The position numbers and the translations under genes are program-made. This document shows, piece after piece, positions 45,207 through 56,430 of a stretch of 64,000 bases of DNA. Location: positions 44,020,001-44,084,000 of the forward strand of contig OZ024745.1 of NCBI GenBank assembly GCA_964016885.1. Direction: 5' to 3'. The stretch's first letter is position 1; each line of letters opens with the position of its first letter. The notes under the pieces are model-generated. The model was not told the origin of the DNA, made no database searches, and worked only from the letters and a program-made list of their open reading frames with translations. This DNA is from Eledone cirrhosa (Eukaryota).

Positions 45207-45540
45207 ATTTGCATATCAGCAGACTGCTGATATGCAAATCTGGCTGATCAATGGATCTGCTAATATGCAGATCTGACTGATCAACCAGTCTGCTAATATG
45301 CAAATCAGGCCGATCGGTCACTGTATATTTTAGAAAATAGCATATATTTTCACTAGCTCTGACAGTTGGCAGGTGAACAGTGAGCTGTACTGATGAAGGG
45401 TGATACCCAGAAACATTAGTGTCTGCAGCTCTGTGAGCAAGAATGAAGGGTTCATTCTACTGACATGGGTTTAAAAATGAGGCTTGTTTGCATAATTGCA
45501 AATGAATCGAATGTTATTATTAATATTCGAAAAACTCAGA
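45207..45540 (+). mobile_element. Octamer-type hammerhead mini-element (family O1)
   Basis: 16-bp fold-back at 45207-45239, three 33-bp units carrying ATGCARAT, then AGAAAATAGCATATATTTTCA, a hammerhead, TGTTTGCATA and (TA)n. Confidence 0.75.
45382..45431 (+). ncRNA. Type I hammerhead ribozyme
   Basis: GAGCTGTA-CTGATGA-agggt(gat)accca-GAAA-ca(ttag)t-GTC-TGCAGCTC. 8-bp stem I, canonical GUC site. Confidence 0.88.
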
Positions 45541-45701
45541 TTATATATATACCAACCCTACTACCATCTACAAACTGACCAATGAGAATCAAAACTATTC
45601 CTGCTGACAACATTAATTTATTCCTAACAAGCTCATATGTCCCAAGGCTCTGATACCATCAACACTATAAACACAGAGCTGGCATATCTAAGAACTGACT
45701 A

Positions 45702-45757
45702 ACTGCCTGATGAGGTCATAGCCATTCAATGGCTATCATCGAAATATATATAACAGT
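45702..45757 (+). ncRNA. Type I hammerhead ribozyme in a separate (TA)n-flanked island (45551-45803)
   Basis: actgc-CTGATGA-ggtcatagcca(ttcaa)tggctatcatc-GAAA-tatat-ATA-acagt. Confidence 0.75.
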
Positions 45758-47851
45758 AAATAAAGGATTATGAGTTCATGCAATTGACTTATGTTTCGTC
45801 ACTATATATATATATATATATATATGAAAAACAAGGGAAGAAGAATACTGCATGGTTGCACATGGATTACATATTATAAAATTAGTCCCTCATCAGTGAT
45901 TTGCCAACCATCATTGGTATTTCATCGCATTAAGAATCAGATACCTCAGGTTGGTGCGAGCAATAACTAAAATAAGCTATTGGGACAAGTGAAACGCGTA
46001 AAGCGAGTGAGACAAGTGATATATATATATATATATATATATATATATCATTTAGCTGTTTTAACGGCTGTTCTAGCGATGAGTTTATATATATATATAT
46101 ATATATATATATATATATATATATATATATATATATATATATATATATAATATATATCAACTCGTCGCGCTAGAACAGCCGTTAAAACAGATCAACTCGT
46201 CGCGCTAGAACAGCCGTTAAAACAGCTAAATGCTGTCAAAGACAGCGATGGGCAAAAATGCCTTAGAGGATAAAGACCAGCAGCCAGTTGTCAACAAAGA
46301 GACAATCCACATGATGGGTGACAGACAGATGAAATATAGAAAAGATTGAAAGAGGAGGTGGATAAGGAGAAGTGTGTTGATGCATAGAAGTGACTGGAAA
46401 AGGAAAACAAAGAAAGGTGATGTCCAAGACAAGTTTACACACACATATATCTTCACCTTCATCAGCTCTCAAACCAGCAAAATGGTTTCGCAGTCTCGGC
46501 TGATTTAAGCTCTTCCAAAAAATGCAGTGAGTGAGGTCTTTGTCAACACGGTGGAAGCAACAGATATGTTTCGATTTTATTAGATCTCATCAACGAAGCA
46601 TATCTACGTTGTATATTGGTCTGATAAGAATGATGTAATAAAGATATAAATAGAAAAGAGAAATATGTTGTTACACATTGTGTCATGCAGAACCTCCCTG
46701 AGATGTATGTTAAGGGTACACGTATCTGTGGAATGCTTGGCCACTTACACGGTTATTTCATGAGCAGGCTGTTCCGTTGATCGAACAATTGGAACTCTGA
46801 TCGACGAAACCGACTGAGGTCCATTCTAAATGTATAAATGTATAAACAAAACTTATTAGAACTTCCACCCCTATCTACTCCTTTTCTTCATCCCTGTTCC
46901 TGCTGCTGGTTAAAGATAAATAACATTTACTTTGCCGTATACTCTTTGTTGAATGAGTCATAGTGTTTTTGGCTGGCAATAAAAGTTAGCTTCCTTACTA
47001 GTACTAAAAACCTTTCCACTAAAATCTGTGCCGTGTAAAAGCTGACTGTTTGATGACCAGATTTTAAGTAGTGCATGCGATGGTGGCGGCGATGGTTGTC
47101 GTTATTGTTGCCGATGTGGTAGTTTGTTTTGGTGACTGACACTATATTTTTGTGAAATGTGATGACGGTGGAGGCAACAGTAGCGTTGGTAGCGGCATTG
47201 GTGTTGTGGTGGTAGGGTCGTCGTCGGTGATGACGGTGGTAGTGGTTTTGTTCTAGGTCAGTCCTTACTGAGCAGACTTTTGATCAAAGACGTTGCAGTC
47301 TCGACCATCCGGTTGTGTGTGTGTGTGTGTGTGTGTGTGTGTGTGTGTGTGTGTGTGTGTGTGTGTGTGTGTGTGTGTGTGTGTGTGTGTGTGTGTGTGT
47401 GTGTGTGTGTGTGTGTGTGTGTGTGTGTGTGTGTGTCACACTACTTGTTCAATATGTCCTGTCGGTTTTCAAAAGATTGTAGGCTCGAATTTGAGGAAAC
47501 CCAGCTGCTATATTTAGCAGGTCAGTGACTATGTAGTGGTTCACTCGATTGTAATAGTTAATGATGTTAATCATAAACTTCCTATCATTTCATTATGTCT
47601 TCTAGCCAACGAGAGAGCCTTTTGTGTGGTCGATCAAACTGCTAAAAACAAAAGCCAAATTTTCCAAAAATCCCACCCTGCTGTCTTTAAAAAGAGAGGT
47701 AGATTGATCAATGTAGTCGTCATAGTTATTACAAAATTAAACTGGAATTAAACAATAACTCTTATATATATATATATATATATATATATATATATATATA
47801 TATATATATATATATATATATATATATATATATATATATATATATATATAT

Positions 47852-48232
47852 ATACGATATTAATAAATGGAAACTATATTTATAAAACCATATTTATTTC
47901 ATTATACATATTTCAGAGATAACACATTAAATTATGACTTATTAAAACAATGTAAACAAATCACTATCCAGACAGCCTCCAATGGTTGTATTTTAAAAGG
48001 GTACGTCAAAGCTATTTGTAAAACTGTTATATATTGTATTTTGTCTGATGAAGGCATACCATAATTTAATGTGTTATCCCAGAAATATGTATAATGAAAT
48101 AAATATGGTTTTATAAATATAGTTTTCATTTATTAATATCGTATATCTACTCCAAAAACTTGTCGAGTGCTTTATATCAGTTATAAAAATATTTACTTGT
48201 TGTATCCCAACAACTTTAAATAGAACTTTTGC
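47852..48232. mobile_element. Fold-back hammerhead mini-element family H1
   Basis: Inverted arms ~47852-47936 and 48060-48146, tail to 48232, (TA)n flanks. Homologous to 27414-27678. Confidence 0.85.
48037..48101 (+). ncRNA. Type I hammerhead ribozyme
   Basis: TATTTTGT-CTGATGA-(weakly paired stem II)-GAAA-tatgt-ATA-ATGAAATA. 8-bp stem I with two G:U pairs. Confidence 0.7.
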
Positions 48233-48317
48233 ATATATATATATATATATATATATATATATATATATATATATATATATATATATATATATATATATAT
48301 ATATATATATATCTCTT

Positions 48318-54549: not shown

Positions 54550-54945
54550 AGTGCATGATGGGAAGGATAATTTGAAAGAAACCGTGTTGATCATGAACAG
54601 CGGTGTTCTCGTAAGGCCCTTGAGTCTGGTTTGTATAAGTATCTTGGATGGAGGTTGATTTAACCTGTAAAGAATGTGGCCGGTTATGTCTAAGTAGGCC
54701 TTGGAAATCATCGGAGAAGCCACATACACGGGAACACTGTCAACTGTGCATTGTATATCATTTCTGTTTGTGGAGAGAGTGGAAAAGAGTGTGCCTCAGT
54801 TGGTGGACTGAAACGTCATTTGAAAGTGTACCAAAACAGGACTCTAACACCTACTGCGAGAGGCCTCCATTGTTGCAACGTCAGTGCAAGGGTGTGAGTC
54901 AACTAGCAGAACTAAAAAGCCACGTCTGTGCTGCTCATGCTTAGG
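54550..54945 (+). mobile_element. Degenerate LINE 3' end with C2H2-like zinc-finger remnants (RTE/BovB-like)
   Basis: TCKECGRLCLSRP.. and further GLKRH/LKSH motifs spread across frames. Confidence 0.45.
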
Positions 54946-55000
54946 TGTCAGGCGACAGCATTATTCGAAATCGTGTTGCAGCCATCATATAACATTATAC

Positions 55001-55829
55001 GGCATTGGTAAAATATAACGTCCGGGAAAGTGAAACTAATTTTTATGACAAGTGAATGTGTTTGTTTTTTAGTATTGCGTGTGTGATTATTTTTTCTTTT
55101 TCTTTTTTTGTGTATTGTGTGTACGGGAAATTATACTTACCTTATCAACATCCTATACTTACCTTATCAACATCCTTATTAGACCGTATAAATAGCTGAA
55201 ATACAGTTGATCATCTCGCCAAATTTGTTGGCACCAACTCTCTGCCGCCAAAGAAATTCAGCTAAATACGAGGGGAATAAATCGTCGCTTGTCCCATGTT
55301 GTCGACGGAGCTTTTTCTTCGCACGGCTCCAAGTGTTCTCTATGAGTTGTGTGTGCACATTAGGGTCTTCAGGATCGCAAAGTTCCGTTGGTGCACAACA
55401 ACATCATGGAGGTAAATGCCACCTTGAATTTCCTCAATATCTCTGACCCAAATCCTTTATCATTCTCTGTCCTTCTTATGACCCGGCCTTAATTTCTTTG
55501 GGGGACAGAAAGTTGGTGCCAACTTTGGCAAGATATTACAAAAACATCTAAACGATGATGATGACACAAACACATATATATATACAAACACACATATATA
55601 TATATACATACAGACACACATATATATACACACATATACACACCCACACATATATATATAAGAGAAAATAATCACACACGCAATACTAATTAACACCATA
55701 TCACTATAGAGACCTGTTGTAAATAAACAAACTGTATCGTAATTTTCAGTGTAAAAAAAAAAAAAAAAACACATTCACTTGTCATAAAAATTAGTTTCAC
55801 TTTCCCGGACGTTATATTTTACCAATGCC
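55001..55829. mobile_element. Non-autonomous Mutator- or Merlin-like fold-back DNA transposon
   Basis: ~60-bp perfect TIRs GGCATTGGTAAAATATAACGTCCGGGAAAGTG.... Exact 9-bp TSD ACATTATAC (54992-55000 and 55830-55838). Further internal inverted blocks. Confidence 0.9.
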
Positions 55830-55839
55830 ACATTATACA

Positions 55840-56430
55840 TATATATAAAAAGAAATAGGATTTCGCTTCAAGAATAGCTTTATACAATATGTATAAATAT
55901 TTCGTATCTCCAAAGAATACAGTTTTAGGAAGCCGTAGCTATGCAAACACCGGGGAGGGGGGGGGGGGCTAACGCCCTCTGGTGATGTCCAGCAGAAACA
56001 AGGGGGGCAACCGTCTATGCATTTCGGGCTTAACTGGCCTTCGTCAGGACGGTCCCTCCCACCGCTTGCGATTGCTGGACTAGAAGACAGCTGAGAATAT
56101 ATACTTTTCTCGTCTCTGTAAATGAGGTGATTAATCTCATTTGCATAGGTGATTAATCTCATTTGCATAAGTTGGCTCAATATGCAAATGAGATTAATCA
56201 CCTCATTTACAGAGACGAGAAAATTATATATTTTCAGCTGTCTTCTAGTCCAGCAGTCGCAAGCGGTGGGAGGGACCGTCCTGACGAAGGCCAGGTAAGC
56301 CTGAAATGCATAGACGGTTGTCCCCTTTGCTTCTGCCTGACATCACCAGAGGGCGTTAGCCCTCCGGTGTTTGCATAGCTACGGCTTCCTAAAACTGTAT
56401 TTCTTTGGAGATACGAAATATTTATACGTA
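55840..56430. mobile_element. Long fold-back octamer-type hammerhead element (family O2)
   Basis: ~250-bp arms 55891-56147 and 56181-56427, tail 55840-55890, TA-rich flanks. Confidence 0.9.
56275..56318 (+). ncRNA. Minimal type I hammerhead ribozyme (mirror copy on minus strand at 56010-56053)
   Basis: ACCGTC-CTGACGA-aggc(caggtaa)gcct-GAAA-tgc-ATA-GACGGT. Palindromic stem III ATGCAT. Confidence 0.92.

Follow-up and report, generated by a model that had tools for sequence, protein, structure and literature searches.

Two hammerhead elements and their motif order

The window analysed here is a stretch of 64,000 nucleotides from Eledone cirrhosa (contig OZ024745.1 of assembly GCA_964016885.1, positions 44,020,001 to 44,084,000, forward strand), and all positions below are numbered over this whole window. 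Our subject is a pair of hammerhead ribozyme elements, namely element A (45207-45541) and element B (55847-56427), which we interpret, with about even confidence, as ends of the type found in Penelope-like elements (PLEs), each bearing an octamer-TATA promoter for RNA polymerase II (Pol II) whose octamer may double as a strand of an RNA helix. The features of the two elements are the following, with +1 denoting a candidate transcription start.

Element A
45207-45541, plus strand: whole element, a putative PLE-type end with a hammerhead, its 3' end lying in a short (TA)n (from edge analysis)
45207-45239, both strands: 5' palindrome (16+1+16 nt) containing the inverted octamer and the first direct octamer
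45224-45322, plus strand: three 33-bp units, each with TATGCA(A/G)AT
45297-45305, plus strand: proximal octamer with 5' T, -74..-66 from candidate +1; RNA partner at 45486-45494
45333-45351, plus strand: AGAAAA...TTTTC hairpin of 7 bp, overlapping the TATA-like box at 45341-45348 (-30..-23)
45369-45372, plus strand: GCAG, in register with B; candidate +1 is A45371
45365-45464, plus strand: type I hammerhead with extended stem I; core CUGAUGA at 45390, cut after 45423
45485-45494, plus strand: TGTTTGCATA, the octamer complement, which is also an imperfect octamer on the minus strand
45507-45532, plus strand: 3'-terminal hairpin of 10 bp, ending in CGAAA

Element B
55847-55890, minus strand: 44-nt "tail", in the left arm only, ending in T5; its first 30 letters match family sequence
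55891-56180, minus strand: left arm, the main copy
56125-56169, minus strand: two 22-bp octamer units of the left arm
56103-56096, minus strand: TATA-like box of the left arm; candidate +1 at 56073
56047, minus strand: hammerhead core of the left arm, with the anti-octamer at 55940-55949
56168-56181: inversion junction, inside a short palindrome that is itself family sequence upstream of the octamer
56180-56427, plus strand: right arm, an inverted 5'-truncated copy without a tail, followed by (TA)n
56181-56189, plus strand: octamer with 5' T (-74..-66); RNA partner at 56370-56377
56211-56241, plus strand: hairpin around the TATA-like box at 56225-56232 (-30..-23)
56253-56256, plus strand: GCAG; candidate +1 is A56255
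56248-56341, plus strand: type I hammerhead with extended stem I; core CUGACGA at 56281, cut after 56312
56368-56377, plus strand: TGTTTGCATA
56396-56418, plus strand: 3'-terminal hairpin of 8 bp, ending in CGAAA, 9 nt before the shared end

A motif search of the window located the exact octamer ATGCAAAT, which is an exact Oct1 site (PMC5493778), at 45232, 45298, and 56182 on the plus strand and at 45207-14, 56139-46, and 56161-68 on the minus strand, and the variant ATGCAGAT at 45265 in A. All six exact copies fall within A and B. Their number is near expectation (2.4-4.5 per 64 kb), and they amount to roughly two independent origins plus local duplications; the copies are non-independent in view of the 33-bp triplication and 16-nt inverted arm of A and of the inversion and 22-bp duplication of B. 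Relative to candidate +1, the octamers of A stand at -73, -106, and -139, and, of an inverted copy of the element, A has only the 16-nt arm. Every motif that the first-pass annotation had located in A and B, from the letters alone, was found in its place: AGAAAAT-N-ATATATTTTCA occupies 45332-45352 and 56218-56236 (37 and 44 nt before CUGANGA), and TGTTTGCATA, described as lying ~60 nt past the cleavage site, starts at 45485 and 56368 (62 nt past the cut at 45423 and 56 nt past that at 56312). The cassette is real, but it is smaller than first described.

Nine cores in the window pass a type I hammerhead descriptor, and three of them belong to A (45390, plus), the right arm of B (56281, plus), and the left arm of B (56047, minus). 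Each of the three combines a CUGANGA/GAAA/UH core with stems I-III, the descriptor stems measuring 8/4/5 bp in A, 7/4/3 bp in B right, and 7/3/3 bp in B left; the base of stem II carries an A-A mismatch in A and an A-C mismatch in B left, and stem III of the B hammerhead amounts to 2 bp, in a palindromic ATGCAT. A search with Rfam returned 0 families at the gathering score, and the hammerhead model was not among the 7 and 21 matches at E up to 5; the Rfam matches were sub-threshold and of miRNA type only, caused by palindromes.

At the 5' side of A, the flank 45138-45210 is a 94.6% copy of 44206-44279, which continues differently, and A starts where the second copy of this 74-bp local duplication stops; at its 3' side, CGAAA is followed by 9 nt and then by a TA run. 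Among the 33-bp units of A, the first 17 columns vary at 2 places and the last 16 at 9, a lower variation in the octamer half that gives a Fisher P=0.01 with a boundary chosen after looking, and P=0.21 for the octamer columns alone.

Shared register and the type of promoter

Octamer, TATA-like box, and CA keep identical distances in A and B. In each, 37 nt separate the end of the octamer from TATATT, and the offset of the following GCAG is the same; a gap-free A/B alignment places the octamer at -73..-66, the TATA-like box at -30..-23, and CA at candidate +1, with the ribozyme cut 53 (A) and 58 nt (B) downstream of this position. Past the octamer, 31 of 67 ungapped positions match (shuffle mean 19.3, P=0.0015); with the majority letters of family B, described below, the match is 30/67 (P=0.003) and the longest run falls from 11 to 7. 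A global alignment of A with B right scores 15, a value reached by 0 of 1000 shuffles, and the local alignment score of 39 is reached by 1 of 1000. Furthermore, TATGCAAAT and TGTTTGCATA are letter-identical in the two elements, stems I-III and the 3' hairpin differ in sequence, and A and B right both stop 9 nt after CGAAA, behind a terminal hairpin.

If A and B were unrelated and shared these words by chance in an AT-rich genome, one would expect an octamer count near expectation, a longest run that shrinks with family letters, and a comparison of A with B left that is no better than controls, and all of these were seen. We nevertheless consider such a coincidence very improbable, since seven features stand in the same order, the ungapped match has P <=0.003, the global and local scores are so rarely reached by shuffles, and the two elements share their ending behind the terminal hairpin.

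In both families the octamer stands upstream of the TATA-like box at a fixed spacing, as in octamer-TATA Pol II promoters. That the elements carry their own POU-responsive promoter, as the first-pass annotation had proposed, is plausible in so far as the octamer, the TATA-like box, and CA occupy the same ungapped register in two diverged families; a POU factor would then bind the octamer, and transcription would begin near CA. The spacings of the octamer repeats, 33 bp in A and 22 bp in B, would be near whole helical turns.

The more specific proposal, that the layout is the octamer-proximal sequence element (PSE)-TATA arrangement of U6-type genes, fared less well. A type 3 promoter for RNA polymerase III (Pol III) of the U6/7SK kind, with a host-specific PSE, would yield a ribozyme RNA of ~170-225 nt. 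In keeping with this, TATA-like words lie at about -30, but +1 is itself placed from them; moreover, A and B right are free of T4 runs from candidate +1 to the 3' end, a T5 run ends the tail of B left, the segment 56192-56211 is invariant among the family rows shown, and TCACC equals the first five letters of the PSE consensus. Tested with the vertebrate consensus of PMC5493778, which may not be the host's PSE, the best matches are 7/12 in A (P=0.88) and 9/12 in B (P=0.11). The TCACC site of B, at -57, matches at 8/12, the canonical slot (-67..-47, with type 3 positions from PMC3958870) holds at most 6 (A) and 5 (B) of the 12 letters, and A and B agree at 7 of 19 letters there; no mollusc PSE was found in the literature searched. 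A distal octamer at about -200 to -245, as in U6 and 7SK (-203 and -244; PMC3958870), is likewise absent from the sequence seen, where octamers lie at -139, -106, and -73 in A and at -73 in B. Finally, RNA made from an external Pol III promoter does not include that promoter, yet in family B coverage of the promoter part is about as good as that of the ribozyme, and the T4 runs of A (45328 and 45347) would hinder read-through. With no vertebrate-type PSE above chance and the octamer at -73, the U6-type reading is not supported; we have lowered it to an improbable one, on a vertebrate consensus from which the host PSE may differ.

The TCAC-starting segment, which had been listed among the shared motifs, begins at -53 in A and at -57 in B and was rejected, also as a shared PSE start, being 4 nt out of register. 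Also rejected were TGTTTGCATAG as a shared 3' splice site (A is without AG there), a reading frame common to A and B, and a shared snRNA 3' box (10/12 at 45469 in A, at best 9/12 in B).

RNA pairing, family variation, and the palindrome of B

In the predicted RNA folds, TATGCAAAT pairs with TGTTTGCATA over 9 bp in both A and B, with pair probabilities of 0.84-0.98 over eight pairs in A and, in B, of 0.82-0.97 over five pairs and then 0.71, 0.39, and 0.11; the 3' motif arises in 212/20000 and 59/20000 shuffles. AGAAAA and TTTTC are the strands of a hairpin in which, at exactly corresponding positions, A has an A-U pair and B a G-C pair; in B this hairpin has 10/11 pairs with family-majority letters and 8/11 in the right-arm copy of the window. 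TTCT-TGAC supplies the 3' side of the outer helix of stem I (8/9 pairs in A; 9/9 with family letters and 7/9 in the right-arm copy in B), and the 5' strand of that helix (45365-45373 in A; 56248-56256 in B) contains candidate +1. Folding of the whole elements gives z of -6.0 (A), -3.5 (B right), and -2.4 (B left).

These folds raise a different account, in which RNA structure is everything: the octamer, AGAAAA/TTTTC, GCAG/TTCT-GAC, and TGTTTGCATA would be helix strands of a self-paired unit or circular RNA, the octamer helix would be kept as a protein-binding site (e.g., for the PLE reverse transcriptase), the POU match would be coincidental, and transcription would come from elsewhere. The 9-bp helix in both elements, with its high pair probabilities and its rarity in shuffles, the compensatory change in the TATA hairpin, the nearly complete pairing with family letters, and the folding z values all fit, as does the report that retrozyme RNAs are highly self-paired (PMC7229834). 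We still judge this account to be possible rather than likely: the other helices differ between A and B, whereas the octamer helix is invariant and equals an exact Oct1 site with a 5' T; the triplication in A supplies three octamers for one partner strand; and the -73/-30/+1 geometry would be due to chance.

Variation in family B was followed by aligning four sets of public DNA to the right arm (56163-56430), namely 2467 and 2496 contigs from one sample and 1256 and 1029 reads from restriction site-associated DNA (RAD) sequencing in a second study. B is a high-copy family, with the reservation that depth does not equal copy number, and its variants fall at 36 distinct places over ~250 nt (40 rows shown, 19 hidden). 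The right arm departs from the family majority, among other places, at 56224 (C 65%, G 33%, by contig depth in set X1), 56233 (C 97%), 56236 (G 82%), 56337 (T 99%), and 56338 (G 99%). Of the motifs first described as conserved, AGAAAA remains; TTTTCA, TGACAT, and the final T of AGAAAAT are peculiar to the right arm, and the first two of these were rejected as family motifs because the family-majority letters differ. None of the 40 rows shown places a variant in the octamer, TATATATT (56225-32), GCAG, or the segment 56192-56211, and one minor variant lies within TGTTTGCATA (56372). Such constancy carries little weight in a young family, with 19 rows hidden and the octamer near the edge of the alignment.

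Upstream of 56180, the family sequence runs on through a short palindrome that matches the spacer at the inversion centre, and downstream of 56427 it continues either into (TA)n or into the sequence of the left arm beyond 55891. Loose ends behind 56427 number 139 reads in set X5 and 134 in set X6, both types of end being present in the family, and loose ends also occur before 56180/56181. Tandem octamers had been described for both elements; they stand in A, with its 33-bp units, but in B they come down to a 22-bp duplication in the left arm, and this 22-bp unit repeat is absent from the 13 family joints listed, with no insertion listed either. Beyond the family, a B-specific 21-mer had 0 matches in metagenome contigs. 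The pattern octamer-TATATT-CUGAYGA occurs at 31 viral and 72 metagenome loci of the contig collections, but no relative was found among these 103: 2 pass a loose hammerhead filter, with poor stems and GAAG cores, 0 have a 3' anti-octamer, and we take the matches as chance.

The stretch 55891-56427 had been seen as a divergent promoter that fires a ribozyme in each direction. B consists of a main copy (55847-56180, minus strand) and an inverted truncated copy, joined head to head at the family palindrome between TA-rich flanks. Like insertions of PLE pseudo-long terminal repeats (pLTRs), it thus has an adjacent inverted truncated copy, a tail on one end, and an AT-rich/(TA)n target; the inverted truncated copy, the tail, and the junction palindrome are all described for PLE insertions (10.1101/2021.04.23.441226, PMC3846280, PMC11167929), and dual hammerheads on opposite strands have been found 100-700 bp apart (PMC4209133). 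When the two arms are aligned (246 columns), they differ by 11 substitutions and two indels; 7 of the 11 are positions where the right arm departs from the family, and private changes that break helices are present in both arms (e.g., 56302 in the left arm). A bidirectional promoter maintained over 55847-56427 would explain why, if the cassette is a promoter, the octamers are central and TATA-like boxes lie on both sides, and the pLTR promoters of Adineta PLEs have been proposed to be bidirectional (PMC3846280). We think it most unlikely, however, as both arms are losing helices, the one-arm tail and the junction palindrome are marks of PLE insertion, and the same kind of inversion is seen at 29827/29843 and 51106/51224, in hammerhead elements that lack octamers. 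The palindrome is better explained as an inverted 5'-truncated PLE-type copy in a (TA)n target, and B would fit a decaying insertion rather than a maintained two-way promoter.

Among the window's reading frames of >=120 aa, none beside A or B encodes a PLE protein with reverse transcriptase and GIY-YIG parts, and a 169-aa frame across B has no Pfam family. As no PLE protein frame is linked to either element, A and B may be either ends of autonomous PLEs or monomers of retrozymes without long terminal repeats (non-LTR retrozymes), kinds reported as related (10.64898/2026.07.22.740005). The tail of B is adjoined by 77-nt inverted repeats (54994-55070 and 55760-55836; 95% complementary, 689 nt apart), possibly MITE-like.

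Elsewhere in the window, at least six more hammerhead pieces without octamers were seen, several of them inverted pairs beside (TA)n.

Other hammerhead pieces
27475-27541
29789-29881
30291-30341
47847-48149
48887-48925
51001-51329

No exact octamer accompanies the window's other hammerhead candidates (11 of 14 examined), a weak control because the inverted pairs have the -73 slot cut away. Those at 30341 and 48925 (both minus) look like one hammerhead family and those at 27515 (minus) and 48045 (plus) like another; CUGAUGA...GAAA cores with a hairpin between them at 45707-45744 and 29013-29053 fail the full descriptor and are possibly decayed hammerheads. Near A, inverted arms at 44732-45028 (86 nt, 71% complementary, 125 nt apart) enclose two head-to-head segments with what we take to be tRNA-like A/B-box words, although ARAGORN found no tRNA there, and a 35-bp direct duplication lies at 46156-46225, with its reverse complement spanning a (TA)n run at 46050-46085. 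The setting is animal-like repeat DNA with microsatellites, a 34-bp satellite (600-9995; 276 copies, 93% matches), and an RTE-like LINE at 31953-35121 (minus), which has two frames, for an endonuclease (Exo_endo_phos) and RVT_1, and 3'-end fragments near 43790-44050 and 48330-48466. Minisatellites of 45 bp (10041-10355), 93 bp (40622-40812), 22 bp (51962-52129), and 71 bp (61741-62118) were also found, as was a dispersed SINE-like family (51653-51767, 57080-57193, and 57589-57704; repeat families D12 and D16), which presumably resembles octopus tRNA-derived SINEs.

Proposed mechanism and comparison with known systems

We propose that A and B are pLTR-type ends of two diverged families of retroelements, either Penelope-like or PLE-dependent and non-autonomous. 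Each end would have a Pol II promoter of its own, composed of a POU octamer (about -73) and a TATA-like box (-30), from which transcription would start near CA, 53-58 nt ahead of where the hammerhead cuts. If the source copy was a tandem, cleavage by the hammerheads would trim off a short leader and free a unit RNA containing the following promoter copy, and the promoter would be inherited upon reverse transcription of the unit RNA into (TA)n sites. Within this RNA, the octamer would pair with the 3' TGTTTGCATA; because a DNA-binding protein would fix the octamer, its RNA partner would be fixed as well, and the helix would stay letter-identical in A and B while other helices changed. The B palindrome would be the usual inverted truncated copy, with any divergent firing a by-product. 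More speculatively, and with considerable doubt, the 9-mer may be dual-coded throughout a PLE-dependent lineage, recruiting a host POU factor as DNA and closing the unit into its retrotransposition fold as RNA, in which case it could be an invertebrate counterpart, by descent or convergence, of the newt satellite 2 promoter; thousands of dispersed copies would then be ready-made POU-responsive mini-promoters in the genome.

Several observations weigh against this proposal. Each shared motif may also be explained by RNA pairing, which the first-pass annotation had overlooked; in particular, GCAG may be kept for pairing because candidate +1 lies inside the 5' strand of outer stem I, and 4 nt in the start zone would match in register by chance with a probability of 0.07. 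In A, the TATA-like box starts with C, and TA-rich words abound in this genome. The similarity of A and B over their whole length does not appear strong, because A against B left has a global score of -8.5, below two unrelated hammerhead elements (-1 and -3) of ten. No tandem joint of a 3' end to a 5' start is among the 13 joints listed, although a linker above ~100 nt would be invisible to 150-nt reads. Moreover, variants near the alignment edge at 56180, where the octamer lies, may be suppressed, and family A is represented by one copy.

Hammerhead elements with their own promoters, as well as a proposed bidirectional pLTR promoter, are already known, and PLE pLTRs contain promoters (PMC6765202). 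For the combination seen here, two PLE-type families that keep an octamer at a fixed spacing and pair it with a 3' complement, the literature searched offers no precedent: no octamer in a PLE pLTR or an invertebrate retrozyme is reported among the literature matches listed, a survey of titles and term counts with most subscription papers and some supplements outside its scope. Two supplementary files of PMC4209133 gave 0 matches for the octamer, which carries little weight, as the accessible passages are short RNA-letter motifs, and "promoter," "octamer," and "TATA" have 0 matches in the main text of a study on the PLE origin of retrozymes (10.64898/2026.07.22.740005).

The pLTR ends of endonuclease-bearing PLEs share with A and B a type I hammerhead and AT-rich targets, and with B the inverted truncated copy, the one-end tail, and the junction palindrome; in Adineta Pen2a, TATATATA lies 20 bp from an Inr-like word, and the promoter is proposed to be bidirectional (PMC3846280). 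In contrast to such ends, A and B have no linked open reading frame (ORF), their hammerheads are canonical rather than minimal, and the tail measures 44 nt instead of 30-40; the POU octamer and the octamer/anti-octamer helix are absent from the accessible parts of the PLE descriptions compared. Non-LTR retrozymes, reported to be PLE derivatives and often solo monomers (10.64898/2026.07.22.740005, PMC7229834), resemble A and B in their size (~250-340 nt), the lack of an ORF, a canonical type I hammerhead with short helix III, and strong self-pairing; A and B, in contrast, were seen as single units of DNA in the window. Animal retrozymes and PLE ends are strongly transcribed.

A proximal octamer occurs in human 7SK and H1, and the Pol II promoter of histone H2B is of the octamer-TATA kind. 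Type 3 Pol III promoters (U6, 7SK), as described in PMC3958870, likewise have an octamer upstream and TATA near -30, but that octamer lies at -203/-244 rather than at -73, and A and B have no vertebrate PSE match at -67..-47. Immunoglobulin VH Pol II promoters (PMC2212390) combine ATGCAAAT with TATA at a spacing conserved per family. In the VH rows seen, this spacing is 8-26 bp, as against 35 bp in A and B, and VH promoters serve host genes and not mobile elements. The 70-bp cassette, with its exact spacing in two families, offers a small promoter candidate in which DNA function could be separated from RNA pairing; were it structural only, it would point to an RNA helix of specific sequence as a possible recognition site for a PLE protein.

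Newt satellite 2, in work attributed to Coats et al. in 1994 and Cremisi et al. in 1992, reportedly combines an octamer with a PSE and starts ~45 nt before the cut. It is a hammerhead repeat like A and B, and such newt repeats are Pol II transcripts made from an snRNA-type promoter (PMC2220036, PMC6765202). Whereas the amphibian repeats form tandem arrays, the elements described here are dispersed and inverted and have a TATA-like box and no detectable vertebrate-type PSE. If the promoter is real, it would tie an abundant repeat to POU factors and extend the case of newt satellite 2 to another animal lineage.

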